Origin: Mycoplasma sp. Bg1
GTDB lineage: Bacteria > Bacillota_I > Bacilli_A > Mycoplasmatales > Hepatoplasmataceae
Length of the DNA stretch: 64,000 bases
NCBI GenBank assembly: GCA_001641205.1
Contig: LSMX01000003.1
Coordinates: forward strand, 120,177-184,176
Direction: 5' to 3'
Positions 15,232-60,156 of the stretch are shown here, one piece after another (within the stretch, counting starts at the first letter, position 1; each line of letters opens with the position of its first letter). Made by a program: the position numbers and the translations under genes. The notes below the pieces were generated by a model. The model was not told where the DNA came from. It made no database searches and saw nothing but the letters and a program-made list of their open reading frames with translations.

Positions 15232-15315
15232 TTAATTATACTATTTTAAACTTTTTACTTTCAATTTAAGAGATTTATAATTGATTAATTATTCTAATTT
15301 AAATTCTTTTATTTT

Positions 15316-17966: not shown

Positions 17967-17987
17967 TGGCTGAGCCATTATTTTTTT
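17964..17987. terminator. bidirectional rho-independent terminator between convergent genes
   Basis: Stem taatggc/gccatta (17964..17970 and 17974..17980) with a 3-nt loop. T7 lies downstream and an A-run upstream. It overlaps both convergent stop codons. Confidence 0.55.
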
Positions 17988-18613: not shown

Positions 18614-18614
18614 T

Positions 18615-19277: not shown

Positions 19278-19294
19278 TTTTAACCAACATATTA

Positions 19295-19951
19295 TTAATC
19301 TAAAATAATTGCAATAATTTCTTTTACAATTTCTTTTGGTTTTTTATTTTCTGTATTTATTTCCACAAAATTATTTACATTTTGTTGAAAATGATTTTTA
19401 AACATTGGACGATCATAATAGTTATGATAAAGATCTCTTCAATATTCTTCTGGAGTTTCAGTTTCTACTTCTCGCCCTCTTCCTTGCAAACGTTCCATTA
19501 CTGTTGGTAATGAAGCTTTAAGCAAGAAAAAATAATCTGGTCTTGCATCAAGTTTTGTCATTTTGTCAGTCAATTCTTTATAAATTGCTTGATAAGTAAT
19601 TGAATTAAACATTGAAATATTTTCTTTAATTGTATGTAATTCAGCAAAAACATAATCATCTAGAAAGTGACGATCATAAACAGTAATATCATTTTCTTTT
19701 TCTTTTGGAGTTAATTTAGATTGTCTTTTTTCATCTACTAATCATTGTTTAAATCTTCCTAAAAGAAAATCTAATTGAGCAACAAAAGCTCAATCCTGTG
19801 GTGATTTATAATAATAATCTAAATAAATTGAATTTACTGTTTCTTCATTTAGGAAAGAAACATTAAATCCTTTATTTTCTAATTCTTTTTTTAATAGTTT
19901 AGAAGTAGTGGACTTCCCAATCCCTACTGTTCCAGAAATTACAATTCTCAT
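19295..19951 (-). CDS. deoxynucleoside kinase, paralog 3
   Basis: MRIVISGTVGIGKST, then the same-family pattern (..YDRHFLDDYVF.., ..RGREVE..) read through TGA codons. Confidence 0.75.
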
Positions 19952-40940: not shown

Positions 40941-40958
40941 TAATTTAAGAATCTTGTT

Positions 40959-41918
40959 TTATTTTTTAATTGTAGAAACTGCTTTTAGGGTTACTTCTTT
41001 TAAAGTAGAAACAGATTCAATAAATTGTTTTTTTTCTTTTTCTGAAAGATCTAATTCAAAAGTACGAATAATTCCTTCTTTTCCAATTAAACAAGGAATT
41101 CCTGCATAAGTTCCTTCCATCCCATATTCTCCAGAAAGAAGTGCTCCCGTTGCAAAGACTCTTTTTTCATCTCTTAAAATTGCTCTTGCAATATCAGTAA
41201 GGTTCATTCCAATTCCATAATAGGTTGCTCTTTTACGATCAATAATTTCATAAGCTTTTTTTCAAACAGTTTCATGAACTTTTGCAAGTTTTTCCTCTGT
41301 AAGTCCATATTTATCATATAGTGTTGATAGTTTAACTCCATTTAAAGTTGCAACTGAAAATGTTGAAACTGATGAATCACCATGTTCTCCCATTACATAA
41401 ATTCCAAAATCTCTTGGTGCTGCGTCTTCGATTAATTTAGATAATTCTAATTTTAATCTTGATGTATCAAGTGCACATGATGCTGAAATAACTTTACTTG
41501 GTTCAAATCCTGTAACTTGTTGAAAAACTGTAGTCATCACATCAACAGGATTTGAAGCAACAATTGTCACTCCTTCAAACCCATTTGCTTTAACTTGATC
41601 AGCAATTGATTTCATAATTTTGACATTATCTTCAACCATTGCAAGTCTTGTTTCACCTGGTTTTTGAGGTCTCCCTGCAGTAATTACAAGTAAATCTGCA
41701 TCTTTTACAAGTTCATAACCACCATTTTCAACAATATAATCTGTTGCTGTAGTTCCTCTTCCATCTTCAAGATCAAGTTTTTGACCATAAGCAACTTCTT
41801 CATTAATATCGATAATTCCATAATATTTTGCTAAATTTTGATTTGTTGCTGCATATAAGAATGACATCCCGACAAATCCCGCACCAATAAGCACTACTTT
41901 GTTTGTTGTATTTTTCAT
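40959..41918 (-). CDS. ldh: L-lactate dehydrogenase (canonical specificity loop)
   Basis: VVLIGAGFVGMS (Rossmann fold), loop ITAGRPQKPGETR (Gln102/Arg109 equivalents), LDTSRL, GEHGDS. Two same-frame pieces joined by TGA. Confidence 0.88.
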
Positions 41919-42087
41919 TTTTTCTCCAATAATAATTATATTTCTATTATATTACTAAATAATTAAGGAAATTTAAATATTTTAGATGGTTTGTTTTTTA
42001 TAAAAAAATAAAACAATTAAATAAAATAAATTTAATTTTTTTCTAATATTATTTAAATAAATTATTTAAATAAAGTAAGGGAAAAAC

Positions 42088-42321
42088 ATGAAAACAGAAA
42101 CAGACATAAAAACATTTTATTATTTAGGATTAATCTTTTTATTTATAGGATTATCAATATTTTTTGGAGTATTAGCAGGTTACTGTCATGAAGGAATAAA
42201 ATCTGCAAAGGATAGTTCTTATTATACTGCAACATTAAATCAGCATTTAATTTACTATTCATTTATTCTTTTGATATTTTTGCAATTCTTTTTACAATAT
42301 ATTCATTTAATAATTTTTTAA
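42088..42321 (+). CDS. small 2-TM membrane protein (77 aa), member of the repeated TM-module family
   Basis: ..KTFYYLGLIFLFIGLSIFFGVLAGY...LIYYSFILLIFLQFFLQYIHLIIF. Same layout as the two modules inside 48771..49517. Confidence 0.5.
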   Translation: MKTETDIKTFYYLGLIFLFIGLSIFFGVLAGYCHEGIKSAKDSSYYTATLNQHLIYYSFILLIFLQFFLQYIHLIIF

Positions 42322-42542
42322 ATTGTTTAAACGAAAAGAAAAAATTAAAATATGAAACTAATTACAATCCTATTAATTTTAAAAATACTCAAAATTAATA
42401 AAATAATAGGATTAAATATACTGTTTTAAATTAAAACCCTCAAAACTTTAATTTTTTATTTTATAAATAGCCTCCAACAAGAAAGCACTTTATTTTTAGT
42501 ATAATTATATTATTATATTCACAAAATAAAGGAAAAATAACT

Positions 42543-42977
42543 ATGCCACGAAGAAGAAGGGGTAAACCCATTATGACAACTGCTGTAACTATGAGTGCAA
42601 TGTCAAATAGAAAAACAAATAAAATGCAACAACAGCAAATGCAACAACAACAAACTCAGCAAACTCAACAACAACAAAATTATGCTACAGCACAAGACCC
42701 AATGCAACCTGCAACTCCTGTTCAACCAGAAGTAGTTGCACCAATAAAAGAAGAAGAACAAGCAGATCAAATTAGAACTATTGCTTCTGCAATTTCACTT
42801 TATCGAAAAAAAGGTTTAAGTTTTGCAGAAATCTTTACCAAAGTTGAAGCTTATAATAAAGGTTTTAAAAGTGAAGAAGATTTTAAAAAAGGATATTTAG
42901 ACTTTGTAAATGAAGAAGCAATTACTAATCCTAAATGAGAATCTGTACTTGAATTTGAACTAGAGCACCAAGAATAA
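42543..42977 (+). CDS. Arg/Gln-rich protein with conserved C-terminal domain, paralog A (144 aa)
   Basis: MPRRRRGKPIMTTAVTMSAMSNRKTNKMQQQQMQQQQTQQ.. then IRTIASAISLYRKKGLSFAEIFTKVEAYNKGF..W(TGA)ESVLEFELEHQE. RBS aaaggaaaaa and a tataat box lie upstream. Confidence 0.7.
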
Positions 42978-43017
42978 AATTCTAATTTAAATTTATAAAT
43001 TTGTTTATTATTAAAAT

Positions 43018-43047
43018 AAAAAAATAGGAATTAATTCCTATTTTTTT
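43018..43047. terminator. terminator hairpin (aaaaataggaatt/aattcctattttt family), copy 1
   Basis: Palindrome centred at 43032/43033 and flanked by A-run and T-run, so it could act in both directions (Q-rich gene on plus, ldh-like 2 on minus). Confidence 0.6.
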
Positions 43048-43128
43048 ATTTTCTTTATGTAATTTAAAATTTCCACTTTACAAAAAGCATTAATTCTTAT
43101 ATTAAGACTAATCTTATCTTTTATAATT

Positions 43129-44097
43129 TTAATTCTCTTCCCTAATTATAGAAAATGCTTTTAAGTTTAATTCTTTTAAAATTGAAATAGATTTAATAAA
43201 TTTAGCTTTTTCTTTTTCTGAAAGATCTAATTCGAAAGTTCTAATAATTCCTTCTTTTCCAATTAAACATGGAATTGCTGCATAAGTTCCTGCAATTCCA
43301 TATTCCCCCGAAAGAAGTGCTCCCGTTGCAAAAACTCTTTTTTCATCTCTTAAAACTGAACAAGCAATATCAACTAAAACCATTCCAATTCCATAACTAG
43401 TTAATCCTTTACGATTAAAAATTTCATAAGCTTTTTTTCAAACAGTTTCATGAACTTTAGCAAGTTTTTCTTCTGTAAGTCCATATTCTTCATATAATGT
43501 TGATAACTTAACTCCTTTTAATGTTGCAGCTGAAAATGCTGCAACAGAAGAATCTCCGTGTTCTCCCATTATATAAACATCAAAATCTTTTGGGGCTGCA
43601 TTTTCAATAAGTTTTGAAAGTTCTATTTTAAGTCTTGAAGAATCAAGAACACATGAAGCTGAAATTACTTTATTTGGTTCAATTCCAGTAATATGTTGAT
43701 AAATTATTGAAGCAGCTTCAAGTGGAGCTGAGGCAATAATAGTTATTCCTTTAAATCCGCTTGCTTTAACTTGAACTGCAATTGATTTCATAATTTTTAC
43801 AGTTCCTTCTAATAAATCATGTCTTGTTCCACCTGGTTTTAATGGTCCTCCCCCAGCAGCAATAATAAGTAAATCTGCATCTTTTAGAAGTTCATATCCA
43901 CCATCTTCTACAATATAATCACTTTCAATAGATCCTCTTCCATCTTCAAGATCAAGTTTTTGGCCATGAGCAAATTCACTTTTTAAATCAATAATTCCAT
44001 AATATTTTGCTAAATTTTGGTTTATTGCTGCATATAAAAATGATGTTCCTACATATCCAGCACCAATAACTACTACTTTATTTGTTGTATTTTCCAT
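43129..44097 (-). CDS. LDH-family 2-hydroxyacid dehydrogenase, variant specificity loop (paralog 2)
   Basis: VVVIGAGYVGTS, LDSSRL, GEHGDS, but the loop reads IAAGGGPLKPGGTR. That is one extra residue, Leu in place of Gln102, and Gly in place of the Glu before Thr-Arg. Confidence 0.8.
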
Positions 44098-44228
44098 TTC
44101 TACTCCTATTATAATTATTTTTTTAATCCTTAAAATTAATAAATATAAGACATTCTATGATCTTTATACCATTTTAAAATTTTTAAGTGAACTTTTACCT
44201 CTACTTAGGTTTTATTCCATAAATAACT

Positions 44229-45197
44229 TTAATTCATTTCTTCAATTATAGAAAGTGCTTTTACTTTTAAATCTTTTAAAACCAAAACAGATTTAATAAA
44301 TTGAGTTTTTTCTTTTTCTGAAAGTTCTAATTCAAAAGTACGAATAATACCTTCTTTTCCAATTAAGCAAGGAATTCCAGCATAAGTTCCTGCAATTCCA
44401 TATTCTCCTGAAAGAAGTGCTCCCGTTGCAAACATTCTTTTTTCATCTCTTAAAATTGAACGTGAAATGTCAACTAAAGTCATAGCAATTCCATAACAAG
44501 TTAATCCTTTACGATTAAAAATTTCATAACCTTTTCTTCAAACAGCTTCATGAACTTTAGCAAGTTTTTCTTCTGTAAGTCCATACTCATCATATAATGT
44601 TGAAAGTTTAACTCCTTTTAATGTTGCAACTGAAAAAGCAGAAACTGATGAATCTCCATGTTCTCCCATTACATAAATTCCAAAATCTTTTGGAGCTACA
44701 TTTTCAATAAGTTTTGAAAGTTCTAATTTAAGTCTTGAAGAATCAAGTGCACATGAAGCTGAAATTACTTTATTTGGTTCAAATCCAGTAACATGTTGAT
44801 AAATTGTTGTTGCTATATCAACTGGATTTGAAGCAATAACAGTTACTCCTTTAAAATCATTTGCTTTAACAGAAACTGCAATTGATTTCATAATTTTTGC
44901 GGTATCTTCAAGTAAATCAAGTCTTGTTCCGCCTGGTTTTAATGGCCCACCACCAGCAGCAATTATAAGCAAATCTGCATCTTTTACAAGTTCATAACCA
45001 CCATCTTCTACGATATAATCAGTTCCAATAGATCCTCTTCCATCTTCAAGATCAAGTTTTTGGCCATGAGCCATTTCTCTATTTAAATCAATAATTCCAT
45101 AATTTTTTGCTAAATTTTGGTTTATTGCTGCATATAGAAATGAAGTTCCTACATATCCGGCCCCAATAACTACTACTTTATTTGTTGTATTTTCCAT
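44229..45197 (-). CDS. LDH-family 2-hydroxyacid dehydrogenase, variant specificity loop (paralog 3)
   Basis: Same variant loop IAAGGGPLKPGGTR. Very similar to paralog 2 along its whole length. Confidence 0.8.
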
Positions 45198-45453
45198 TTT
45201 TTCCCCTCCAATAATTATATTTCATTATATTATTAAATATTTAACTGATTTAAAATATTTTAAAAAATCATTATACATAATTTATAAATTAAAAAAAACA
45301 AATTTATACTACAATAAAAAAATAAAATTAATAAAAACTTTAATTACATAAATAAGTTAAATTAATTTTAAAATAAACTTATTAATTGAGGAATAGATCT
45401 TATTTAGTATAATTTTATTATTATATTTATGAAATAAAGGAAAAAAAGTAATC

Positions 45454-45879
45454 ATGCCAAGAAGAAGAAGGGGAAGACCTCTTATGACAACCGCTGTAAC
45501 AATGAGTGCATTATCAAATAGAAAAACAAATAAAATGCAACAACAACAAATGCAGCAAGATCAACAAACGCAACAACAAAACTATGCAACAGCACAACAA
45601 CCAATGCAACCTGTTGCGCCTATTCAACAAGAAGTAGTTGCGCCAATACAAAAAGAAGAACAAACAGATCAAATTAGAACTATTGCTTCTGCAATTTCCC
45701 TTTATCGAAAAAAAGGATTAAATTTTGCAGAAATCTTTACTAAAGTAGAAGCTTATAATAAAGGCTATAAAAATGAAGATGACTTTAAAAAAGGATATTT
45801 AGATTTTGTAAATGAAGAAGCAATTAGTAACGCTAAATGAGAATCTGTACTTGAATTTGAATTAGAAAACCAAGAATAA
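45454..45879 (+). CDS. Arg/Gln-rich protein with conserved C-terminal domain, paralog B (141 aa)
   Basis: MPRRRRGRPLMTTAVTMSALSNRKTNKMQQQQMQQDQQTQQQ.. ..IRTIASAISLYRKKGLNFAEIFTKVEAYNKGY..W(TGA)ESVLEFELENQE. Its upstream region is homologous to that of paralog A. Confidence 0.7.
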
Positions 45880-45908
45880 AGCTATAAGAAAGTATCATTA
45901 AAATGAAT

Positions 45909-45941
45909 AAAAAAAATAGGAATTAAATTCCTATTTTTTTT
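45909..45941. terminator. terminator hairpin (ataggaatt/aattcctat family), copy 2
   Basis: aaaaaaaataggaattaaattcctatttttttt. Confidence 0.6.
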
Positions 45942-45956
45942 ATTATTATCTAAATT

Positions 45957-46354
45957 CTAATATGTATGTGTTGCTTCTTTTCCTTCAAGAATATCAACAC
46001 CGTTTGAAGTTCCAATTCTACTTGCCCCAGCATTAATATATGCTTCAGCATCTTCGTAGGTTCTAACTCCACCTGCAGCTTTAATTTTTGTATCAGGATT
46101 AATATTATCTTTCATAATTTTTACTGCTTCTAAAGTAGCTACTGAACAATCAATTCCTGTAGAAGTTTTTACAAAATCTCATTTTGCATTACTTGCAATT
46201 CTTGATGCTTTTGCAATTTGATCATCGCTAAGAAGAGCAATTTCTAAAATAATTTTAATTGTTGTTCCTTCTGTTGCAGCTCTAATTGCTTTTAGCTCAT
46301 TTTCAACGTATTCTCAATCTCCTGATTTAATCATGGAAACATTAATTACATAAT
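45957..46354 (-). pseudogene. deoC 3' fragment (about 132 C-terminal codons), copy 1
   Basis: Near-identical (a handful of mismatches by eye) to 49854..50251 of the intact deoC, including the stop codon. Homology ends abruptly after ..aattacataat at 46354. No 5' part and no start codon. Confidence 0.85.
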
Positions 46355-46555
46355 TAAATCTATCTACTTCTTTTATAAAAGCACTTTTTTTACTATACAA
46401 ATTTTAGTATTATTATTTTTATTTCAAAAAAATTACAAAATAAAACTAAAAATACAAAAATGATGTTTGTAATTATTGTAATTTAGATGAAATTAATTAG
46501 ATTAATTGTTTTAATAGTTATTTTAATTTAAAAAAGAATCATTTTCTCAATAAAT

Positions 46556-47176
46556 TTAGTTATTTATAATATTAAATATTTTTCTTGCAAACTGAAAATA
46601 TTCTTCTGTAGGTATTATTTTTGTTATTGGAATATCATAATTACTATGTACAATTTTATTTCTTTCAGAAATTATTTTTTTTCAAAGTTCATTATCATTA
46701 TTGGTTAAATTTTCAAAATTATCAATAATTAAAGAATGATAAAAATGATTATTTTTATTTTTTGTATTTAACAAAATAGAAATATCTTTTTTAACATTAC
46801 AGTTATTTCAAGTTTTGTTATTTAAAAAATCACTAATAAGTTTTATAAATAATTTTTTATTAAAATCATCAATATCCTCTCTTAACAAAATTTTGCCAGT
46901 AATTCTACTTATTTTTTCTCTATTATTGATATTTTCATCACTTAAAGATCTTTCAAAAAAATATTCAGACATTTTTGAAATAATATTTTTATCTAAAAAT
47001 TTATAACTTTCATTTTGAATACTCATTAAAACAAAATTTTTTCATTTGGTTTCTATTTCAGATACAATAAAAATATAAAAATACTCCACAATTATTTTTT
47101 GTTTAGGTGTAGTTACATCAAAAGAACTATTTTTAAGTTTTTTTTCCAGATAATTTAAGATTTCTATGTTTTCCAT
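46556..47176 (-). CDS. HEPN-like protein (206 aa) with C-terminal R-x4-H motif
   Basis: ATG at 47176 lies 1 nt after the DUF262 stop. The C-terminus ..ELW(TGA)KKIISERNKIVHSNYDIP.. contains RNKIVH (Rx4H). Codons 46556..46700 were hand-translated. Confidence 0.5.
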
Positions 47177-47177
47177 T

Positions 47178-48407
47178 TTAAATAATTAAATAATCACTAA
47201 ATGCGGTAAAAATTTTAGTATATTTCAACATTAATTGATTATTATTTCCTGTTCCTATTTTCAAACTTAAAAAAAATTTTTTTTCTTTATCATTAATAAA
47301 AAGAGATTTATAAATTTCTTGAAATTGCTGTTTTGAAATTTTTTCAAAATCTAGATATTTAAATAAAATTAATGTTGCCTCTGCCAAAGAAATATTAATT
47401 TTATTATCAAAATTAAAAAAATTCTCATTTTTTGAATTAGAATAAATTCTAAATATTTTAATTCCATCAAAATATTCTTTTAATTTATACATTAGCTTAT
47501 TTAAATCATTAATAATTTGCTCATTTTTTTCAATAGAATTTTTTGATGCTAATTTCATATAATTGTTTATTAAATAAATAATTCTTCCATTATAATCCAA
47601 AATTTTAATAGAAATTTCATTAAAATTATTTCTACTAAGTCTTATTTTTTCATAAAAAGACAAATATCTAAAAATAAGTTCGGTGTTTTTCATTCTTTTA
47701 ACAAAAACAGAATTTAGTGTTAAGTTTTCAAAAACTTTTCACTCTAAATTATCATTAGTAAATTTTTTGATTTTAGAGTTTAAATCACTTCTATAAATTG
47801 CATTACGTAATTCTTGAGTATTTAATTTCATAGATCCTTGGTTTAATCTAGAAAAAATATCAAATTTTAAAGATTCATCAGATCCTTTTCTAATTCTTAT
47901 TGTTTGTAAAACTTGAGTTTTTAAATAATTTTGGACTCCTATATTTAATTCTTCAAATTTTTTGCCATTTAAATTTTCAAATGATTCTAAACCTCTTAAT
48001 TTTCATTCATTATGTAAAAATGTTTGAATGGTTGTTAATCTTTGGACACCATCTATAACGTCAAATTTTGAATTTGTAGTTTCAAATAAATAAACTGGAG
48101 GTATAGTAATATTAATTAAGAGTGATTCAATAAATTTTGCTCCATTTAATATTGATCAAACAAAATTTCTTTGAAATTCTGGACTAATATTTCAATCTTC
48201 ATCATCTAATCTTCTACAAATATCTTGCAATTCAATGTTGGTGGTATCTATTATTAATGATTTAGGTTTTCAACCTTTTTCTTGATTATTAGCTTCATCA
48301 CTATCAAATTCTTCTTCTTTTTCATCATAACCAGAGTTTTTTTCAAAATCATCATTTTCTTTAGTCAAAATTGGTGCAAACTCTAATTCCTTAATTTTAT
48401 TATTCAT
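47178..48407 (-). CDS. DUF262 (ParB/GmrSD N-terminal-like) domain protein, 409 aa
   Basis: ..NISPEFQRNFVW(TGA)SILNGAKFIESLLINITIPPVYLFE..FDVIDGVQRLTTIQTFL (QR..W and DGxQR motifs). Acidic N-terminal extension. No DUF1524/HNH-type C-terminal domain recognised. Confidence 0.7.
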
Positions 48408-48492
48408 AATATTCCTTTTTATAATTATATAATTTTAAATAAACTAATTTAAAATTACTTTATTATTTAAAATAAATTTTGCATTTTTATAA

Positions 48493-48518
48493 AAAAATAG
48501 GAATCTAGTTCCTATTTT
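48493..48518. terminator. terminator hairpin family, copy 3 (degenerate loop)
   Basis: aaaaataggaa tctag ttcctatttt. Confidence 0.45.
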
Positions 48519-48530
48519 AATATTTAAAAT

Positions 48531-48756
48531 CTAATATGTATGTGTTGCTTCTTTTCCTTCAAGAATATCAACACCGTTTGAAGTTCCAATTCTACTTGCC
48601 CCAGCATTAATATATGCTTCAGCATCTTCGTAGGTTCTAACTCCACCTGCAGCTTTAATTTTTGTATCAGGATTAATATTATCTTTCATAATTTTTACTG
48701 CTTCTAAAGTAGCTCCTGAACAATCAATTTTTGTAGAAGTTTTTACAAAATCTCAA
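48531..48756 (-). pseudogene. deoC 3' fragment (about 75 C-terminal codons), copy 2
   Basis: Near-identical to 49854..50079 of the intact deoC. Homology stops at ..acaaaatctca, and 15 nt further on comes the stop codon of the next gene. Confidence 0.85.
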
Positions 48757-48770
48757 TTTAAAATAATTGC

Positions 48771-49517
48771 CTATTCTTGATTTTCCAATTCAAATTCAAG
48801 TACAGATTCTCATTTTTGATTAGTAATTGCTTCTTTATTTACAAAATCTAAATATCTTTTTTTAAAGTCCTTTTCATTTTTAAAACCTTTATTATAAGCT
48901 TCAACTTTAGTAAAAATTTCTGCAAAATTTAATCCTTTTTTTCTATAAAGGGAAATTGTAGAAGCAATAGTTTTAATTTGATCTATTTGTTTTTCATATA
49001 TAGATGCATCTGTCTCTAATTGAATATGGGCAGTAGTTTGTACTAATTTTAATGGTGTTTCATTATTATATAAACAAAGTATGCTTTTTATTATTCAATA
49101 TATTGATAAAAAAATTGTAAAAATGTCTATAAAAATAAATGCAATATAGAGAGAGTTGATTCAACTTGAAATCCCTACAGAATTAAACATTAGATCATTA
49201 ATTTCTTTTGTATATATTCCAAATAAAATTGCTAAGCCAAAAAATAAGAAGAATAAACCAAAATATATAATTACTTTAAATTGGTTAATATTTATATTAT
49301 TTTTGTCTATTTCTAAACAAAATATAATTTTTATTATTCAATATATTGAAAATAAAATTGCAAAAATATCGAAAAAAACAAAACTAGTGCGCCGTGCTCC
49401 ATAATATCAATGAAAATGATGTGCAATTACCCCAAACACAATTGCTAATGCTAAAAATAAAAATAATAATCCAAAATATAATATTACTTTAAATATATTC
49501 TTCTGTTGCAAATTCAT
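48771..49517 (-). CDS. fusion protein: two tandem 2-TM modules + the conserved C-terminal domain of the Arg/Gln-rich family (248 aa)
   Basis: I translated codons 49517 down to 48972 one by one and read the remaining 3' codons down to the TAG at 48771 by eye; no TAA/TAG was seen. MNLQQKNIFKVILYFGLLFLFLALAIVFGV..FDIFAILFSIYW(TGA)IIKIIFCL / ..NQFKVIIYFGLFFLFFGLAILFGI..FIDIFTIFLSIYW(TGA)IIKSILCL, then ..DQIKTIASTISLYRKKGLNFAEIFTKVEAYNKGF..WESVLEFELENQE. Confidence 0.7.
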
Positions 49518-49803
49518 TATTTTCCCCCAACAATTTAATAGTCTTATAATTTTAATTATATATTTAATGATAAAATAATGATTTAAATATATATTTATCT
49601 CCTATTTTTAATATATAAAATTATGTAATATAATAGCAATCTTCATATAAACATTTATATTTTTAAATATTTTTATTCACAATTCCTTTTTGCAAAAAAA
49701 CTAAATAATCAAGTGATTTTTAATTTTAAATAAAAATTTATAATCAATTCTATACTAGAACATCAAGAATAAATTTATAAATAAATATCATCAAAAATAA
49801 ATT

Positions 49804-49832
49804 AAAAAATAGGAATTAACTTCCTATTTTTT
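49804..49832. terminator. terminator hairpin family, copy 4
   Basis: aaaaaataggaa ttaac ttcctatttttt, directly downstream of the intact deoC. Confidence 0.6.
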
Positions 49833-49853
49833 AATGTTTATTATTTATAAATT

Positions 49854-50516
49854 CTAATATGTGTGTGTTGCTTCTTTTCCTTCAAGAATATCAACACCGT
49901 TTGAAGTTCCAATTCTGCTTGCCCCAGCATTAATATATGCTTCAGCATCTTCGTAGGTTCTAACTCCACCTGCAGCTTTAATTTTTGTATCAGGATTAAT
50001 ATTATCTTTCATAATTTTTACTGCTTCTAAAGTGGCTCCTGAACAATCAATTCCTGTAGAGGTTTTTACAAAATCTCATTTTGCATTACTTGCAATTCTT
50101 GATGCTTTTGCAATTTGATCATCGCTAAGAAGAGCAATTTCTAAAATAATTTTAATTGTTGTTCCTTCTGTTGCAGCTCTAATTGCTTTTAGCTCATTTT
50201 CAACGTATTCTCAATCTCCTGATTTAATCATGGAAACATTAATTACATAATCAAGTTCATCAGCACCTCTTCTAATTGCATCTTGGCCTTCAAAAACTTT
50301 AGCTTCGGTAGTTTGAGTTCCATAAGGAAATCCAACTACAGCTGTAATTCCAATGTTATTTGCATGTAATCTTTCTTTTACATAGTCAATTCACATTGGG
50401 TGAATACATAATGTAATAAAATTTCATTTAATTGCATCTTCTACGTATTTATCTAAAATTTCTTTTGTTGAATCTCTTTTAATTAAAGTGTGATCAATAT
50501 ATCTATTTAATTCCAT
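49854..50516 (-). CDS. deoC: deoxyribose-phosphate aldolase
   Basis: MELNRYIDHTLIK.., CIHPMW(TGA).., VVGFPYG.., W(TGA)DFVKTSTG (Schiff-base Lys), AAGGVRT. 220 aa, with TAG at 49854. Confidence 0.9.
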
Positions 50517-50713: not shown

Positions 50714-52099
50714 TTAAAATTTTTGGAAATATTCTAAATCTATTCCGTTTAATTCTAATCGCTTATTAATATAATTCTTAGTTTCTGGTGTTAAAATTGT
50801 TGAAATTAGAGAATGTTCTAATTTTTCTGATTTAATTTGCTTAACAATTTCCCCATATTCATCCTTTTTAATTCAAATATTTCCCTCTTGATCAAAAACT
50901 AATATATTTTTATCAAATAATTTATGAATAGTTGGGCCTAGTAATAAACCATTTTCAGGATCATATTTTTCATCTTTATTACATTTTATAAAATCAACAA
51001 TATGAGAAGCTTCTATTGCATACGAATTTTTCATTCCTTTAATTAAATCATTTTTATTAATAAATTCTTGTTCATTAATTTCAATATATCTTTTAATATC
51101 ATTCAATAAAAGTTGACGATATTGTACTTGTCCTGGTCTACCATTATCATTTTTTATAAAAAATTCTAAAACTTTAGATTGAATTGTTAAAATTTCTACT
51201 TTTCAATCATTTAAATATTTTTCAAATAAAAAATCATTTAATTTATTAAAGATAGTCATTGCTAAATTTAAATCATTTTTAATTAAATTTTTAATTGTTG
51301 TTTGAGTTCCGAAATGTTTTCCAATAGAAGATTTTCCACTTTTATGTGTTTTAAATAATTCTGGAAGAGGAATTTTTTGGTTTTTTTGTTTTCTTAAAAT
51401 TACTACAATATCTAAGCAAACTGGAAAATTGCTATTACATAATTCATATAAAAAGAGTGCATGTAATGAAAAGAAAATATCTCTAATTGAATAACCCTTA
51501 ATATATTTTAGATTAAAATAATTTTTATAATTATTAACAAAATTAGATGCTAAATCAATCTTATCAATAATATAATCATCAATTATTTTTGATTTAAAAA
51601 TTAGATTAAAATAATTACTTGGAGCAAAATCTTTTTGAATTTCCAAATAACCCAAGCTTGCCATAACCTCTATAAATTGTCTTAGAGTTGATTTTGCAAT
51701 TAACTTTTTAAAATTTCTTCTATCATTAAAATAATCTTCTATTTTAAAAATTCACTCTCCCTCTTTTCCAATATAAAGAGCACTAGTTAAATAAGTTAAT
51801 TTTTGATCAACTCTTTTATAAATATTTAGATAATACCGTTTTTCTTTTTTAGTCTTTTTTTGTACTTTTAAAATTGATTCTTTTCATTCAAGAAAAATTT
51901 CTTCTTTTTCTAAATCAAGATTATAAGTTTTTAATAAATAGATAAACAAATTATTTATCCGACATAAATGAGTAAAAAAATCAGTTCCCATTGTTCAAAC
52001 AAATCCTCATTGATCTTTTTTAGTAATATCATCATTCATTTCAACTTGTTTTTGATAGATTGCTTTAATTTTAGTAATTTGATCTTTTGAAAATTCCAT
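50714..52099 (-). CDS. putative type II restriction endonuclease with C-terminal HNH (HNH_2-like) nuclease motif, 461 aa
   Basis: ATG at 52099 lies 1 nt after the methylase stop and is preceded by ggagga. C-terminal ..EASHIVDFIKCNKDEKYDPENGLLLGPTIHKLFDKNILVFD. Pieces 51203 and 50873 share one frame. Confidence 0.65.
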
Positions 52100-52100
52100 C

Positions 52101-53398
52101 TTATTCCTCCAAAGTAGACATATAGTAAAATATCATTTCGATGATATTTACTGCAATTGAATTTCCTGCCTGTTTATAAAGCTTTTCTCTTGCTTGATTA
52201 TCTGTCTTAGCTCGGTATTTTTTAGTAACAAGAAGCATCTCTTTTTTAGCACTTTGATACTGCTTTTCACTAAAACCCATAAGAAGATATGCTTCTCTTG
52301 GGGTAATAAATCTTCAATTAGTATAATCAACTCCATTATTATCAAATCTTTTATTATTAAAAGCAACTGATCCACAATTTGGTAATCTATCCTGTTTTGT
52401 TGTTACTGTTGGAATATGTTTTAAATTAATATCAATGCAAGGAGAAGAATCAATCATTCTTATTCTTGAAGGAGTATTTTTAATTTGTGCTCAAAGCGAT
52501 TCTTCAAAATCTTTATTAGAAAAATCTATTAATTTCTTAATAGGTTTTTTATTTTTTGGTTGATAAATTTTACAAGTATAGATTTTTTTTAAAATAATTT
52601 CAAGATCATCTCTTGTTCCTTTTCAAGAAACTATTTCATTATTAGGATCATAAATAGAAAAAGCATAAACACGGCGTCTTTTTTGGACCATTCCAAAATC
52701 ACTTGAATAGAGCATTCCCCAAATTGTTTTATAACCTAAAAGCTCTAATTGCTCCATCCAAGCATCAAAGTCTGCTCGATGTTGTTTTTGAACTAAATTA
52801 GGAACATTTTCAAGTAGGAGGAATTTTGGTAATAAATTTGGGCGTCTCTCTCTCTCTCTCTCTCTCTCTCTTCTTGAATTGCTTTAAGATTTATTAAAAC
52901 CTTTTCAATTTCAAGAAGTAACCCTGATCTGGTATGGGCTTTTATTCCCTCATTAAAGCCGTGAAAATTACCTGCAGTAGATAAATCAGTACAAGGAAAA
53001 GAATAAGTAAGCAAGTCTACTCCATTGTTATCTTCAATTATTTTTTTTATTCTAGTAGTTGAATCTACTATAGTTCCAATGTTACTAGCAACTTTGAAAG
53101 CTTTATATCAATCAAGTTTTACTTCTTTTTTAATTGTAGAAGTATTTAAAAAAGGTTTTGATCCATCAAGACTAAAAGTATTTTTTTTAATTCAATTATC
53201 AAGTTCATCATCAGTTGGAGTTTTAATCTTACTTCGATAATTTTTATAATGAATTGCAGCATAGGACTGAGCAGCAAAAACATCCCAATCGGATGTTCCT
53301 ATAATTTCATAATCAAGAATGCCTTTACTCTTTAAGTTTTTTAGGGCAGTATTTTGTGCTCCAATTCCACTAAAAGTTTCAATAACTTTAAATTTCAT
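52101..53398 (-). pseudogene. DNA (cytosine-5)-methyltransferase, out of frame at an internal (GA)13 tract (candidate phase-variable gene)
   Basis: 5' frame: MKFKVIETFSGIGAQ (motif I), SFPCTDLS (motif IV). After the repeat, the motifs continue in another frame: RPNLLPKFLLLENVPNLV (VI), QKRRRVY (VIII), ITPREAYLLMGF, GNSIAV (X). Total length is 1298 nt, which is not a multiple of 3. Confidence 0.85.
52845..52870 (-). repeat. (GA)13 dinucleotide tract inside the methyltransferase ORF
   Basis: Thirteen tc units on the plus strand, counted directly. 12 or 15 units would restore a single 431/433-aa frame. Confidence 0.95.
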
Positions 53399-53608: not shown

Positions 53609-54733
53609 ATGAAGAAACAATATTTAATTGGTTTACTAGGACTTACAATAATATTTACCCCAGTTGCAAATAGTTTATTAAGTACCAATTCAAAATTATT
53701 TAATTCTACATATACAAATAATCAAATACAAGAAGAATCTATAATTAACGAAGAAAATAGCCAAGTAATTGTAAAAGATCTTGATAATGATGGAAAAGCA
53801 AGTCAGGGTGATCAAATTGATGAAATACAATTTAGTGCTAATTATGATGAATTTTATCCTCTTTATGAAGATAAATCTAAAACTACTTCATCTAATGAAT
53901 ATGGATTAAATATTTATCCAGAAAATTCACCTAATACTGTAAAACCTTTTTATAGTATTTCTTATAATCAAATTGATGAGTTAAATCAAAATCAAAATGT
54001 AGACTTTTTAAATTTTGATTTTAATTCTACTAATAATCCAACTTGAAAAATTTGAGATGCAAAACTTCCTGATAGTAGTCAAGAATTTATCATAACTGCA
54101 GAAAGCAAAAAAGATAATCATCAAGAAAAAATAATAGAAAATAATATTGGTGAGGTTTCAATTACACCATATATAAAGGATGAAAATGACTGAAGCGAAC
54201 CAAAAGTTTATGATGCAAAAGTAACCGAGAATCCAACTGGTGCATTTATGAACCCACAAGCAACTATCTCCTATGAAGTAGATTATGGTAATAATGGAGG
54301 TGACCGTGGTGGAAAAAAATATCAATTGACAAAACTAGAAATCATTAATATAAACGGTACTGAAATTAAAAATGGTACAAAATATGCAGACAAAGCAAAC
54401 CAAGGTAGCATTGGAGATGATGATTGATTGATAATACTAACTCCTAATACATATTATGATTTATATATGAAGGCAATTTTTCATGACCCTGATGATAAAA
54501 ATGCTGAAGGAATTACTCAAACAGTAAAATTTGATGATGATAGTGGCAAATTTGATACTTTTGATGATAAAGATCCTGATCCCACACCGCCCATTCCCAC
54601 ACCGCCCATTCCCACACCACCTGGTCCTTCTAGTAGTAATACAATGATAATGATTGGAATAATAATTGGAGTTATACTCTTTGTTGGAATTATTTCTTTC
54701 ATCGGATATTATTTATATAAAAAAAATAAATAA
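53609..54733 (+). CDS. surface protein family member 1 (374 aa): signal peptide, ectodomain, Pro/Thr stalk, C-terminal TM anchor
   Basis: MKKQYLIGLLGLTIIFTPVANS.. (no lipobox Cys), DLDNDGKASQGDQIDE, PTPPIPTPPIPTPPGP, then IMIGIIIGVILFVGIISFIGYYLYKKNK. Pieces 53609 and 54428 share one frame and are joined by TGA. Confidence 0.75.
54581..54620 (+). repeat. 15-bp tandem repeat encoding the PTPPI stalk (about 2.7 copies)
   Basis: cccacaccgcccatt cccacaccgcccatt cccacaccac. Confidence 0.85.
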
Positions 54734-54752
54734 TAAAGTTAAAAATAACATT

Positions 54753-54782
54753 AAAAAAAGTAGAGATATTTCTACTTTTTTT
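54753..54782 (+). terminator. rho-independent terminator after surface gene 1
   Basis: aaaaagtaga gatatt tctacttttttt. Confidence 0.6.
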
Positions 54783-54821
54783 AATTTTACTATTCATTAT
54801 GTTTTTTATTAATTGGAGTTT

Positions 54822-54995
54822 TAATCTTACATCAATTATTATAATAAATCACAACATTAAGTTGAGCAACAAAAACATTCTACTTAAAATATTTTTATAA
54901 TTTTGAAATAAAAAAATACCTTTATTCTTTAAGTTTTTTAAAGCAGTATTTTGTGCTCTAATTCTGCTAAAAATTTCAAGAACTTTAAATTTCAT
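54822..54995 (-). pseudogene. decayed copy of the methyltransferase 5' end
   Basis: MKFKVLEIFSRIRAQNTALKNLKNKG.. versus MKFKVIETFSGIGAQNTALKNLKSKG of the full gene. Internal deletions, with motif I destroyed. Homologous to about 53214..53398. Confidence 0.8.
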
Positions 54996-55193
54996 ATAAA
55001 AAATTATATGTAAAAGTAAAGATAAAACTATTGTATATAATGATTTAATAATATAGAAATTCAATATTTAAAAACATGATAATAAATCTTTTACCACATA
55101 AATTGTGTTTATCTTTTTTTTTTTTTTTGTTATTACATTATTATAAATTTATAGATAAATAGCAAATTTTAAGAAAGGAATAAGTAAATAAAT
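54996..55193. repeat. duplicate of the 53399..53608 divergent intergenic/promoter region
   Basis: Same sequence blocks (..taatatagaaattcaat.., ..ttaccacataaattgtgtttatc-Tn-gttatt.., aagaaaggaataagtaaataaatATG). Confidence 0.85.
55113..55128 (+). promoter_or_regulatory. T16 homopolymer upstream of surface-protein gene 2
   Basis: 16 consecutive T, counted. Same position as the T15 tract in the paralogous promoter. Confidence 0.5.
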
Positions 55194-56651
55194 ATGAAGA
55201 AACAATATTTAATTGGTTTACTAGGACTTACAGTAATATTTACCCCACTTGCAAATAGTTTATTAAGTACCAATTCAAAATTATTTAATTCTACATATGC
55301 AAATAATCAAATACAAAAAGAATCTATAATTAATGAAGAAAATAGCCAAGTAATAGTTAAAGATCTTGATCATGATGGAAAAGTAAGTCAAGGAGATCAA
55401 ATTGATGAAATACAATTTAGTGCTAATTATGATGAATTTTATCCTCTTTATGAAGATGAAACTAAAACTACTTTATCTAATGAATATGGATTAAATATTT
55501 ATCCAAAAAATTCGCCCAATACTATAAAACCTTTTTATAGTATTTCTTATAATAAAATTAATGAGTTAAATCAAAATCAAAATGTAGACTTTTTAAATTT
55601 TGATTTTAATTCTACTAATAATTCAACTTGAAAAATTTGAGATGCAAAACTTCCTGATAGCAGTCAAGAATTTATTATAACTGCAGAAAGTAAAAAAAAT
55701 AATAATCAAGAAAAAATAATAGAAAATAATATTGGTGAAGTTGCAATTTTATCATATGTAAACAATGCAAATGGGCAAGATAACCCAACAATAACTTCTG
55801 CAAGAGTAACCAAAAAAACATTTTTTTCTACATACATAAATGTTAAGGTTGACTATGAAGTAGATCTTGGCAATAATGGAACTAGTAGAATTAATAATAA
55901 ATACAATTTAACAGAAATTATAATCACTAATAAATTGGATCATAATAATCCAGTATATTCTGTGGATAAATCTAGTGCTAAGGGCCACTTAACTTTTGAC
56001 CTGCCACTTGGTGTAGACTATGATTTAAGCATGACAGCAATTTTTGATGACCCCGCGAGTTCTTCTAAAAAATCTGATACAGCTGACATCATAGGTGGTA
56101 ATATTGTAGATACTGAAAGAAAGCCTAAATTTGATTATCCAACTGCAGTTAAAATTGATACGAAAAATAATATTTTAGAAATTAAGGGAGAAATTTCTAC
56201 TAATGGTTCTAAAATAAATTCATTGTGGCTTACAAATGAAAATCATGATGTTGAAACTTGAATATATAAATATGATGATAAAGGAGATACATTTTATTAT
56301 GATATCTGGACTCCTGATTACACTGAAAATACTACAGATAGTCTTAAAAATTATAATTTAGGAGTGTGATACACCCTAAATGTAAATACCGATTATTATT
56401 CTATTGGTCTTTGACAAGTTTTAGAAAAAGATAGAACAACCGGTGAAGATTTAAGTTATTTGGAAGATGATTCTTATTATCAAGGCAATACTTCTGGAGG
56501 AGATGATTCTTCTGATGGAGGCGGTTCTGAAGGAGGTGGTTCTTCCAACAATAATAATACAATGATAATAATTGTAATAATAATTGGAATTGTACTTTTT
56601 GTTGGAGCTATTTCTTTCATCGGATATTATTTATATAAAAAAAATAAATAA
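55194..56651 (+). CDS. surface protein family member 2 (485 aa)
   Basis: N-terminal 145 aa are nearly identical to member 1. Gly/Ser/Asp-rich stalk (GGDDSSDGGGSEGGGSS) and the same C-terminal anchor (IGIVLFVGAISFIGYYLYKKNK). Pieces 55194, 55935 and 56460 share one frame. Confidence 0.75.
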
Positions 56652-56670
56652 AAAGAAAGGGAAAACAAAT

Positions 56671-59600
56671 ATGAAGAAGCAATATTTAATTAGTTTATTA
56701 GGACTATTTGCAATATTTGCTCCGCTTGGAAATGGAATAGTAAACACAAAATTAAATTCTTCAACTAATGAAAAAACTACTGGGATAGCGATGAAAGAGA
56801 CTAGTAAAATTTCTCTAATTGATAGTGATGGTTCAAAGGATGTAAGTACAAGAGATAAAATAAATTCTATTTCATTTGATGGAGAATGAGTTTTTGAAAA
56901 TTGAGGAGGAAAGGAATATTATGATGTAGATGATCCTTCTAAAGAAGGTTTAAATTTATATGGTTCATCAAAACCAGATGAACCTTTATTAGAAGTTTCC
57001 TATAAAACCCTTAAGAACAAAGGTACTTATGATTTAAGTGATGACTCTGATATTTTAACTTATAGTATAGAAGCAAATTCTTTAAATAATACAGAAGTAA
57101 AAATATGAGGTTATGAAATTGCTATAGGAGAAACTTTTGAAATAACTGCAGATTATAATTCAACTAAAGAACCAAAAAATATAAAAGAGGATAATCTTGG
57201 AACAATTGAATTGACAATATCTGATCCAAGCACAATTAAACGAACTAGCAATGTTGAAGTTACCATAACTCCACTTGAAGCAAAAGTAGATTATAAAGTA
57301 ATTCCAGGATTAGATACTAGTGGTAATCTTGAAACAGTTGAATTTGTAAGATGAATGAATGGATCATGAGAACTTGCAAGTTCAGAAAAAGAAGAAGATA
57401 CTTTAATTGCTACAAGTCCTAAATTAGAATCAGATGTAAATTATAATAATACAACACTTATAGCTAGAATGAGTGGTGGATGAACTGAATCAGTAGAAGT
57501 TGACCCTTTTAATACAATTTCAAAAAATGAGCCATCCACAATCGACCGAATTGGTAGAGCCCAAGAAACTAGTTCTACTGAAGCAAATGTTAATTATGAA
57601 GTAGATCCCGGAAAAGATGTTAATGGCCAAGATTTAACAGTTATTGAAGTTAAATGAATGGATGGTACAGAAAGGCTTGCAACTTCAACAAATACAAAAG
57701 GTACTTTAATCGCCACTGATTTAATACCAAATCACTCATATAAAAATACAATAATAGTTGCAGAAATGAGTGATGGAAGTTTTACTAATGATGCTAAAAT
57801 TAATGACTTTAAAACTAAAAAAGGTAAAACAAAATCTTCAATTAAAGAAGTTGGTACTGTTAATGTAACTGGGCCCAACACTGCGAATGTTGGTTATGAA
57901 GTAACTCCCGGAACTGATAAAAATGGTGATCTTTTAACAGTTGAAAAAGTAGTTTGAATAAAAGGTGCACAAACAGATGGTAAACCAGAACTTGCAACAG
58001 ATGATGAGGACAATGGAATTGATGGAATTTTAGAAACCGATAGTTTAAACCCAAGTCAGAAATATGAAAAAACAACACTTAAAGCCAAAATGAGTGATAA
58101 TACATGGACTGACCCTGCTCAAGTTGAAACTTTTACAGCAGGTCAAGATATATCAACAATTGAACAAGTTGACAATGTTAGTGTAACTAGTTATAACTCT
58201 GCAAGTGTCAAATATAAAATACACTGTGGAAAGAATGTTGATGGCGAAGATTTAACAGTTAAAGAAGTGCAATGAGTAGAACATTCAGGACAAACAAAGC
58301 TTGCTTCTGAAAAAACAGAGGATGAAAATGGTGTTTTATACACCACTAATTTAGAAGGAAATTTATCTCATGATACAACACTTAAAGCCCAAATGAGTGA
58401 TTATTCGTGAATTGAAATTGATGTTAGATCTTTTGAAACCCCTGCATGTAATGAACCATCGACAATTGAAAAGGTTGATGACATTAATGTAACCAGTTCT
58501 ACTGAAGCAAATGTTAGTTATAAAGTAAACCCTGGAAAAGATGTTTATGGTCACCCAGTAACAGTTAAAAAAGTAAGATGAATGGATGATAATAAAGAAC
58601 TTACAGCTTCACTAGATACAGAAGGCACTTTATATGCACATGATTTAAGCCCAAATCAAACATATTATAATACATATATAATTGCTGATATGAATGCTGG
58701 AGAACAAACAAATACAGTTTTAGCAGGAACATTTACAACAGAACCAGGTAATGTTAATTCAAAAATTAAGGAAGATGGAGAAGTTGAGGTTACTAGCTCC
58801 ACAGAAGCAAATGTCAACTATACTGTAACACCAGGAAAAGATGTCGATGGAAATGATGTAACAGTTGAAAAAGTAGAATGAATAAATGGTGAAGACATTC
58901 TTGAAACAAATAAAGGTAATGGAATTGATGGAATTTTAGAAGCAGATGAATTAAGTCCAAATCAATCCTATAATAATACAAAAATAATTGCTTATATGAG
59001 TGATGGAACCAAAACAAGACCTGTTAAAATAGAACCATTTCATGTATTACCTGGTGATGAACCTTCAGAACTTAATAGTGATGGAAAAGTTGATATAACT
59101 AGTTCTACAGAAGCAAATGTTAATTACACTGTAACACCAGGAAAAAATGTTGATGGAAAAGATGTAACAGTTGAAAAAGTAGAATGAATAAATGGTGAAG
59201 AAATTCTCGCAATAGATAAAGGTAATGGAATTGATGGAATTTTAGAAGCAGATGAATTAAGTCCAAATCAACCCTATAATAATACAAAAATAATTGCTTA
59301 TATGAGTGATGGAACCAAAACTAATGTAATTAATGTTGGTTCATTTCAAGCATGACCTGGTGATGAACCATCAACAATTAAACAAGATGGAATAGTTAAT
59401 GTAACTAGCTCTACTGAAGCAAATGTTAACTATACTGTAAGACCAGGAAAAGATGTTGATGGAAATGGCTTAACAGTTATTAAAGTTAAATGAATGAATG
59501 GTGATGATATACTTGCAACTTCAACAGAAGCATCTGGAAATTTATCAACTAATCAACTAATTGCAGAACAAATTTATGATAATACAACAATAGTTGCAGA

Positions 59601-60156
59601 AATGAGCAATGGAACTTCAACTAATATTATTGAGGTTGATCCATTTCTAGCACATCCAAGTACACCAGTTAATAAGCCAACTGCAATTAATATTGATGAA
59701 CCAAATGGAATTTTACAAGTTGAAGGAAATATTACATTAAATGAAGCAACTGCAAAATCAATAGATGTTAATATTATTAATGAAAAAGGCGACATTGTAA
59801 CAACAGGTTGTGAAATTATTGATAATGGTGATAGTATTTCTTATAGTGTCTTTACTGATCAATATAATGGAAATATAGATAATTATAGATTACAAATTAC
59901 TTATGAAATTGATGGTAAAAAACAAGAACCACTTGAAAATGAATATATAGATATTCAAGAACCAAAAAACATAACAAATGAAGATGCAGATTTATCTAAT
60001 TTAATAGACAATGATGATGGCGATGATAATAATGGTGAGACTGGTAATACAAGTAGTAGTAAACTTGGATTAATAATAGGTATTGTGGCAGTAATCACAA
60101 TTTTATTTTCTGCAGTAATGGGATTTTTCTTATTTATAAAACTTAAAACTAAATAA
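56671..60156 (+). CDS. giant surface protein family member 3 (1161 aa) with tandem beta-rich repeats and C-terminal TM anchor
   Basis: MKKQYLISLLGLFAIFAPLGNG.., DSDGSKDVSTRD, repeats, then acidic DNDDGDDNNGE and the anchor LGLIIGIVAVITILFSAVMGFFLFIKLKTK. All pieces (57658, 58090, 58582, 58996, 59494) share the frame of ATG 56671. RBS aaagggaaaa. Confidence 0.75.
57352..59790 (+). repeat. about 7.5 tandem coding repeats of 300-318 bp (about 102 aa) in surface gene 3
   Basis: Unit boundaries fall at in-frame TGA(Trp) codons 57352, 57655, 57955, 58273, 58579, 58879, 59185 and 59491. Consensus: W-x-[DN]-G..LA...G.L....L.PN..Y.NT.I.A.MSDG..T....F.....PS.I...G.V.VTSSTEANVNYTVTPGKDVDG.D.TV.KV. Confidence 0.85.

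Follow-up and report, generated by a model that had tools for sequence, protein, structure and literature searches.

A lineage-restricted modular protein family with an acidic four-helix C-terminal domain in Mycoplasma sp. Bg1 and related uncultured genomes

The AT-hook proteins (HMGA, CarD) and the AT-hook-like xenogeneic silencers H-NS and Lsr2 are generally described as joining a short basic Arg/Gly/Pro motif by a flexible linker to a small helical domain that mediates oligomerisation. A similar set of parts was found in two paralogous genes, hereafter pA and pB, of a 64,000-nucleotide (nt) stretch of Mycoplasma sp. Bg1 (assembly GCA_001641205.1, contig LSMX01000003.1, positions 120,177 to 184,176 of the forward strand; hereafter the window), although the G-R-P core was present in pB only, the domain order was reversed and no homology to these proteins was detected. 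In Mollicutes, orphan families limited to a few metagenome-assembled genomes (MAGs) are a common finding. The family of pA and pB is modular and lineage-restricted, and it is defined by an undescribed acidic four-helix C-terminal domain of ~70 amino acids (aa), hereafter the C-domain.

42543..42977, plus strand: pA, 144 aa under genetic code 4 (open reading frame, ORF, and translation).
pA layout: basic N-terminal peptide, residues 1-35; disordered Gln/Pro-rich linker, residues 36-72; acidic four-helix C-domain, residues 73-144.
45454..45879, plus strand: pB, 141 aa under genetic code 4, a pA paralog of identical architecture.

The window was translated with genetic code 4 (TGA = Trp), and all family coordinates are given on that basis. 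With this code the entire window, which had a GC content of 26%, consisted of long, tightly packed genes. The table 11 reading, in which pA, pB and the LDH-like genes were broken at TGA codons, was rejected and code 4 preferred. The coordinates of the two paralogs reported by the first-pass annotation were exact under code 4, and the proteins were 82% identical over their full length (tblastn E = 4e-72) and 89% identical in the C-domain. The four features that it had described as common to both were each recovered in pA and pB, namely the N-terminus MPRRRRG[KR]P.MTTAVTMSA.SNRKTNKM, a Gln tract (18-19 CAA and 1-2 CAG codons), a Pro/Val-rich linker and a helical C-terminal domain of ~70 aa.

Ratios of nonsynonymous to synonymous substitutions (dN/dS; Nei-Gojobori) between pA and pB were 0.17 for the C-domain and 0.26 for the N-terminal half, and those of pA/pB against the ortholog in Mycoplasma sp. 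Bg2 (MAG GCA_001641225.1) were 0.11-0.22, orthologs of the window organism and Bg2 being ~80-90% identical. Overall, the ratio ranged from 0.11 to 0.35 for the C-domain and from 0.21 to 0.26 for the N-terminal half of the Arg/Gln type, and synonymous changes predominated in the first 10 codons. With dN/dS values of 0.1-0.35 the family genes are therefore functional, and pA and pB are real genes under constraint, not low-complexity artefacts.

Comparison of pA with the window by tblastn identified a third full member, pC, that was not in the first-pass annotation, and the region also contained a stand-alone transmembrane (TM) module and the remains of a fourth gene.

48771..49517, minus strand: pC, 248 aa, two tandem 2-TM repeats (four TM helices) followed by the C-domain at residues ~175-248.
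42088..42321, plus strand: TM77, 77 aa, a stand-alone 2-TM module between ldh1 and pA, ortholog of Bg2 TM94.
~49662..49772, plus strand: relic 3' end of a fourth family gene (...SILEHQE*), which converges on intact deoC via a third copy of the terminator.

According to the alignment and the internal repeat, the first 170 residues of pC were made of the 2-TM repeats and were followed by a 72-residue C-domain; the protein was 71% identical to pA over 99 aa (tblastn). TM77 matched Bg2 TM94 (phmmer E = 6e-16) as well as the repeats of pC and of its Bg2 ortholog P0005 (E = 1e-4 to 1e-6), and its dN/dS against TM94 was 0.40. All parts of the family, including the 2-TM module, were under purifying selection. 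The relic was recognised from a blastn match of 49702-49847 to 42907-43061 (69%) and from its frame translation, with a weak tblastn match (E = 0.82).

The distribution of the family was investigated with word-indexed searches of 5.8 billion proteins and an exhaustive profile hidden Markov model search of 1.84 billion cluster representatives. These searches returned seven members, belonging to three uncultured Mycoplasmataceae genomes: the three window proteins (E = 1e-32 to 1e-61 against the family profile), three proteins of Bg2 (Bg2-139; Bg2-305, identical with P0005; and P0007), and one of the Mycoplasmataceae bacterium MAG GCA_013139135.1 (NOQ50535.1, annotated as hypothetical; hereafter MAG3-132). 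The Bg2 locus was syntenic with the window and possessed, in order, hisS, a gene encoding a large membrane protein, a single ldh, two genes for stand-alone 2-TM proteins (94 and 165 aa), the gene of the 139-aa Arg/Gln protein (true start MPRRRRGKPM), that of the 305-aa protein P0005 with three 2-TM repeats and a C-domain, deoC, an HNH gene and a methylase gene. As this locus holds both architectures together with the stand-alone TM module, all of them are conserved between the two species. P0007 (120 aa) was a divergent member encoded between a dinB-like polymerase gene and a cof-like hydrolase gene (Bg2 L004 10001-10363); the same gene pair in the window was separated by an 84-nt gap (15232-15315) without a homolog, and P0007 is thus a presence/absence polymorphism of the family. 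The gene of MAG3-132 was located between a murQ-like (SIS) gene and gpsA.

At the extreme C-terminus, all seven members shared the invariant columns I-x9-YRK-x2-L-x13-KG-x10-Y-x2-F-x-N-x7-KWE-x2-LE-x-EL. The net charge of the C-domain was -1 to -4 and its isoelectric point (pI) 4.8-5.8 in the five Arg/Gln-type members for which they were computed. In the AlphaFold2 model, the N-terminal half was disordered and the C-domain was folded into four helices, with a predicted local distance difference test score (pLDDT) of ~66-79 over the helical core and a helix order of long, short, a loop of ~10 residues, long and a final helix.

No significant match to the family was obtained in Pfam, NCBIfam or PHROGs, the best PHROGs matches of pA being weak (E = 0.011 and 0.059), nor among PDB sequences with phmmer and profile searches; Foldseek searches of PDB and BFVD gave no match at E < 0.5. 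The earlier statement that the proteins belong to no recognisable family is thereby borne out by profile, PDB sequence and fold searches. By these comparisons the C-domain is unrelated in sequence, profile or predicted fold to anything described, its members being annotated only as hypothetical, and would be categorically new. A phage or defence origin was rejected on the PHROGs search, in which the matches of pA were the weak ones given above.

Outside the mycoplasmas, the C-domain profile reached a single sequence (E = 2.4e-6, summed over repeats), the unannotated 1248-aa protein P0008 of an ENA metagenome contig (L005 325-4071, 39% GC). It was built of ~eight Trp-rich repeats of ~100 residues each and a Gly/Asn-rich tail, and each repeat contained Y.DFVN..G[ML]TGPEW..[IVL]LRYT. 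The resemblance, Y-x-DFVN-x3-[IM]-[ST]-x-P-x-W-x2-[VIL]L-x-[FY] in ~eight copies, corresponded to the last two helices of the C-domain. However, ~25 of the 72 residues matched, each repeat scored at most 9.5 bits so that significance came only from their sum, and the protein belonged to another organism with another genetic code. With only a motif of ~25 residues in common, P0008 was rejected as a true homolog and not counted as a member.

The C-domain was preceded by two types of N-terminal module. The basic peptide with the disordered Gln/Pro linker was found in pA, pB, Bg2-139 and MAG3-132, and more loosely in P0007, while pC and Bg2-305 carried two or three 2-TM repeats; stand-alone 2-TM module genes were located next to soluble members, upstream of pA and of Bg2-139. 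The N-terminal 35 residues of the most distant orthologs were 79-85% identical, compared to 54-58% for the C-domain. The peptide (first ~30-35 residues) had a charge of +8 and a pI of 12, against -4 for the C-domain, and may behave as a motif that docks on a conserved partner of polyanionic character, for instance acidic lipids, DNA or RNA. Its sequence was RRGRP in pB and RRGKP in pA, Bg2-139 and MAG3-132, and the motif was missing from P0007. An AT-hook of the PF02178 or HMGA type was rejected because the G-R-P core was restricted to pB and Pfam AT_hook gave no match, and the N-terminal 35-mer searched alone against PDB sequences also gave no match.

Concerning topology, P0005 possessed 15 Lys and Arg residues on the side with its N-terminus, linkers and C-domain and 2 on the opposite loops, from which the positive-inside rule predicts a cytoplasmic C-domain. 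In the soluble forms the maximum Kyte-Doolittle mean was 1.4-1.5 over 11 residues and at most 0.2 over 19 residues, and neither pA nor pB contained a Cys, hence no lipobox. A Sec/Tat signal peptide or a lipoprotein signal was rejected because of this low hydrophobicity and the lack of Cys.

The transcription signals of the soluble genes were conserved as well.

42500..42533, plus strand: pA core promoter and ribosome-binding site (RBS), with the -10 box TATAAT at 42500-42505 (extended form TAGTATAAT) and AAGGA at 42529-42533.
45408..45441, plus strand: pB core promoter and RBS, with the -10 box TATAAT at 45408-45413 and AAGGA at 45437-45441; match to TTGAGG-16-TATAAT.
43013..43052, no strand assigned: bidirectional intrinsic terminator between pA and ldh2, a 40-nt perfect palindrome (A-run, stem, T-run; 100% self-inverted), -16.1 kcal/mol, z = -5.3.
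45906..45944, no strand assigned: palindromic terminator between pB and a deoC fragment, the same palindrome as between pA and ldh2, -16.5 kcal/mol, z = -5.1.

The -10 box TAGTATAAT and the AAGGA site were invariant across pA, pB and the Bg2 ortholog, in agreement with the promoter/RBS block that had been described as conserved. The palindromic hairpins 3' of pA and pB also serve the convergent gene. A consensus scan for promoters and terminators was uninformative in this AT-rich DNA (51 sites observed against 72 expected).

From this architecture, the C-domain is tentatively read, with clearly less than even confidence, as a cytoplasmic, membrane-proximal interaction domain, homotypic or adaptor, carried on alternative tethers. 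The TM repeats of pC would anchor the C-domain at the cytoplasmic side of the membrane. The C-domain of pA and pB would be held by a flexible Gln/Pro tether, and the polybasic peptide at the other end of this tether would dock on acidic membrane lipids or on nucleic acid as its polyanionic surface. The C-domain was found fused to the 2-TM module, and the module alone lay beside a soluble gene in both genomes, which suggests joint action; by this Rosetta-stone logic, the soluble and membrane forms probably meet via their C-domains or via the 2-TM module. The outcome would be a small membrane-associated scaffold, not a gene-specific regulator. The synonymous divergence (dS) of the C-domain was 0.21-0.38 between soluble and TM forms within a genome and 0.51 between TM-form orthologs of the two genomes (~41 synonymous sites), a weak hint that the two forms may evolve in concert, as if their domains must match.

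Several points weigh against this proposal. The AlphaFold2 alignment comprised five sequences, and with 5-7 close sequences the model is of moderate confidence. All three genomes with members are uncultured MAGs. P0007 possessed neither the Arg run nor an adjacent TM gene, and the Lys and Arg counts of pC (7 against 3) gave weak support from the positive-inside rule. Small hydrophobic ORFs arise easily at 26% GC; TM77, however, had an ortholog and a dN/dS below 1. Finally, DNA or RNA would be equally plausible ligands of the polybasic peptide.

This last point fits the best-surviving alternative, which is considered rather unlikely: a general DNA-binding or nucleoid-associated protein in which PRRRRG[KR]P would act like an AT-hook or an Arg-rich minor-groove clamp on a 26% GC genome. 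The Gln/Pro linker and an oligomerising C-domain would then follow the logic of H-NS or Lsr2 in reversed order, and the membrane paralog would tether or sequester the soluble forms. The N-terminal 30 residues (+8, pI 12), as the best conserved part of the protein, argue in this direction, as do the exact R-G-R-P core of pB and an enrichment of helix-turn-helix (HTH) DNA-binding domains among the weak fold matches (template modelling scores 0.42-0.48). However, the core read R-G-K-P in pA, Bg2-139 and MAG3-132, the motif was absent from P0007 and unmatched by Pfam AT_hook, the fold matches all had E > 1, the C-domain is acidic, and the TM-fused paralog is left unexplained, sequestration aside. 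A further reading is given a low probability: a previously unknown tethering system of wall-less, extremely AT-rich bacteria. Here the chromosome or RNA would be bound by a polybasic, AT-hook-like peptide attached to a poly-Gln/Pro spacer, and the C-domain would pair homotypically with that of the membrane paralog on the cytoplasmic side of the membrane, forming a minimal nucleoid-to-membrane (or ribonucleoprotein-to-membrane) linker from three shuffled modules.

The interaction-domain reading also has to be set against the possibility, raised by the first-pass annotation, that these proteins are HTH regulators of divergent ldh genes. The window contained three ldh genes.

40959..41918, minus strand: ldh1, 319 aa, canonical L-LDH-like, ortholog of the single Bg2 ldh (dN 0.07); context gene.
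43129..44097, minus strand: ldh2, 322 aa, a later tandem duplicate of ldh3 (88% nt identity, dS 0.23); context gene.
44229..45197, minus strand: ldh3, 322 aa, apparently co-duplicated with pB from the ldh1-pA block (dS 0.39); context gene.

The stated divergent pairing of each paralog with an LDH gene was direct only for pB, with a 256-nt spacer; pA was 624 nt from ldh1 with the TM77 ORF in between, and ldh2 had no family partner. Two duplicated blocks were found by blastn, one containing ldh with 110 nt upstream (40958-42034 and 44233-45306; 82.5%) and the other the core promoter, gene and terminator (42495-43047 and 45403-45940; 84.7%). As the dS of pA/pB (0.37) matched that of ldh1/ldh3 (0.39), these blocks are consistent with the duplication of pA/pB and ldh1/ldh3 as one segmental block, and the two pairings of the window and that of Bg2 therefore represent a single ancestral adjacency.

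A transcription factor that would specifically regulate the divergent ldh paralogs through an HTH at GLSFAEIFTKV is accordingly very unlikely. Its arguments are a divergent and adjacent position to ldh, found twice in the window and once in Bg2, which the duplication reduces to one ancestral event later copied, and a sub-threshold fold likeness to the N-terminal domains of TetR-type regulators. The top Foldseek matches were the DNA-binding domains of TetR/LuxR, DeoR and StbA (E = 1.6-9, query-normalised template modelling scores 0.42-0.48, model pLDDT 69). Like the TetR-family N-terminal HTH (LuxR/HapR/SmcR; 7amt, 8zf2, 2hyj), DeoR (7bhy) and StbA (7pc1), the C-domain is small and all-helical, its long first helix being followed by a short one, a short turn and another long helix, and 55-70 columns were aligned. 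However, all E-values were above 1, probabilities did not exceed 0.33 and no sequence-profile match was found, and, unlike TetR-type regulators, the C-domain is acidic, has no ligand-binding C-terminal domain and is found fused to a membrane anchor. These fold matches may serve as a lead and are no result. No HTH family was matched by pA, pB, pC, P0007 or MAG3-132 in Pfam and NCBIfam scans at E up to 10, nor in the PDB profile search.

The genomic evidence pointed the same way. When co-occurrence with ldh was checked in the other genomes, P0007 was found between the dinB-like and cof-like genes, away from any ldh, and the MAG3 ortholog between the murQ-like gene and gpsA; no ldh was present near the latter within 1.2 kb upstream (to the contig end) or 10 kb downstream. 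Members without a neighbouring ldh in other genomes are what the first-pass annotation had named as grounds against its own suggestion. No operator-like palindrome was conserved in the ldh upstream regions, where an alignment of four regions kept only the -10 box and the RBS, and the inverted repeats that occurred there were AT-rich, imperfect (72-88% complementary) and not common to the three regions. With an acidic domain of net charge -4, no HTH profile, no conserved operator, a partnerless ldh2 and a membrane-anchored pC, the idea of an HTH regulator of divergent ldh genes was abandoned; the pairing reflects historical copying, and ldh regulation is not supported.

The ldh genes themselves were triplicated in the window, compared to one copy in Bg2. 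In ldh2 and ldh3 the substrate loop was altered (AAGGGPLKPGGTR instead of AGRPQKPGETR), and ldh2 had also lost the SNPVD motif (ASAPLEA). The dN/dS was 0.34-0.42, against 0.15 for ldh1 compared to its Bg2 ortholog. These changes suggest a new substrate specificity or incipient decay.

Very improbable, too, is the view of the C-domain as a degenerate EF-hand-like module (SFAEIFTKV-EAYNKGFKSEED-FKKGYLDF), acting as a Ca2+ or metal sensor or as an interaction domain of EF-hand fold. The only sequence-level PDB matches came from this helix-loop-helix, in the profile search, to secretagogin (8bav, E = 0.07) and EFCAB4B (6psd, E = 1.1), with which the C-domain shares a hydrophobic helix, a loop of ~12 residues (~10 in the AlphaFold2 model, between two helices), in which the Gly at position 6 is invariant, and an acidic residue at the start of the second helix. 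Against this, the E-values were not significant, neither Foldseek nor Pfam gave an EF-hand match, no paired second loop was present, helices 1 and 2 being joined by 4 residues, and the ligand positions were wrong in all seven members (position 1, E/N; position 3, Y/N/F; position 5, invariant Lys; position 12, D/Q/A). A functional Ca2+ site was rejected because ligand positions 1, 3, 5 and 12 were not conserved and the motif was single.

An effector directed at the host of an invertebrate-associated mycoplasma has only a slim chance of being correct. In such a protein PRRRRGKP would act in the manner of a nuclear localisation signal and the poly-Gln tract as an interaction tract of eukaryotic type, and fast gain and loss would be expected as in host-interaction genes. 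Poly-Gln together with a basic cluster is unusual in bacteria; the family was dynamic (duplication, a relic copy, and the absence of P0007 from the syntenic dinB-cof gap of the window), and the related Bg2 is a MAG named after the snail Biomphalaria glabrata. However, no Sec-type signal peptide or lipobox was present (maximum Kyte-Doolittle mean 1.4 over 11 residues, no Cys), selection was purifying and not diversifying, and the positive-inside rule puts the C-domain of the TM forms in the cytoplasm.

The weakest alternative, that of spurious or decaying ORFs generated by CAA low complexity in an AT-rich genome, could draw on the one relic copy and on the Gln-tract indels between paralogs and is effectively refuted by the selection signal (dN/dS 0.1-0.35 over both halves, early dominance of synonymous changes), the promoter, RBS and terminator being conserved and orthologs being found in three genomes, where even the most distant ones kept 54-58% identity in the C-domain.

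Around the family genes, a two-gene insertion of ~20% GC was found at 46400-48500 of the window (46556-47176 and 47178-48407, minus strand), encoding a GmrSD_N/DUF262 protein (Pfam E = 4e-23) and a RiboL-PSP-HEPN-like protein (weak match below the cut-off, E = 0.005). It was bracketed by direct repeats of the deoC 3' end (45910-46218 and 48491-48790; 91% identical), was absent from the syntenic Bg2 locus, and looks like a defence island inserted with, or causing, the deoC 3' duplications. Two truncated copies of the deoC 3' half (45957-46334, which kept a 125-aa ORF, and 48531-48689) were 89-95% identical at the nucleotide level to the intact gene (49854-50516). Together with the relic at 49662-49772, they mark this 10-kb stretch as a recombination hot spot.

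The region 50714-53398 contained a gene for an HNH_2 endonuclease-like protein (461 aa; Pfam E = 1e-7), followed by two ORFs (52101-52757 and 52793-53398) that look like the halves of a split C5 DNA methyltransferase, the downstream-listed one ending in ERERERER; they were taken for a methylase from their syntenic counterpart in Bg2, a PF00145 gene. At 54690-54995 the N-terminal part of the methylase (MKFKVLEIFSRIRAQ…) recurred in degraded form. Further along, at 53609-60156 on the plus strand, three tandem paralogs of 374, 485 and 1161 aa had in common a signal-peptide-like N-terminus, MKKQYLIGLLGL..IF.P.ANS. They were on the strand opposite to nearly all other genes, where GC and AT skew were locally reversed, and may form a variable surface-protein family. 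At 17978-19951, three tandem P-loop kinase paralogs were found on the minus strand (MK/RI.ISGT.G.GKST…), whose counterparts in the syntenic Bg2 region were three PF01712 deoxynucleoside-kinase genes.

Should the interaction-domain reading be correct, the family would offer a compact and experimentally tractable case of domain shuffling in a minimal genome, by which a single interaction domain comes in a soluble and a membrane-anchored form. The C-domain adds a new small helical domain to the catalogue of protein families, and the tempting but unsupported annotation as an ldh regulator can be removed. The ldh expansion and the Arg/Gln duplication, with their matching divergence, are consistent with one segmental event in a recombination-prone region.

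In genomic organisation, the family resembles the Vlp/Vsp/Vsa-type variable lipoproteins of Mycoplasma, multigene families with conserved 5' ends. There, too, paralogs are clustered in a recombination-prone region, share their promoter and N-terminus, differ in the length of internal repeats and include duplicates and relics. Unlike these families, the proteins described here possess no lipoprotein signal or lipobox Cys, evolve under purifying and not diversifying selection, are predicted to be cytoplasmic, and have in their C-terminus their most conserved globular part.

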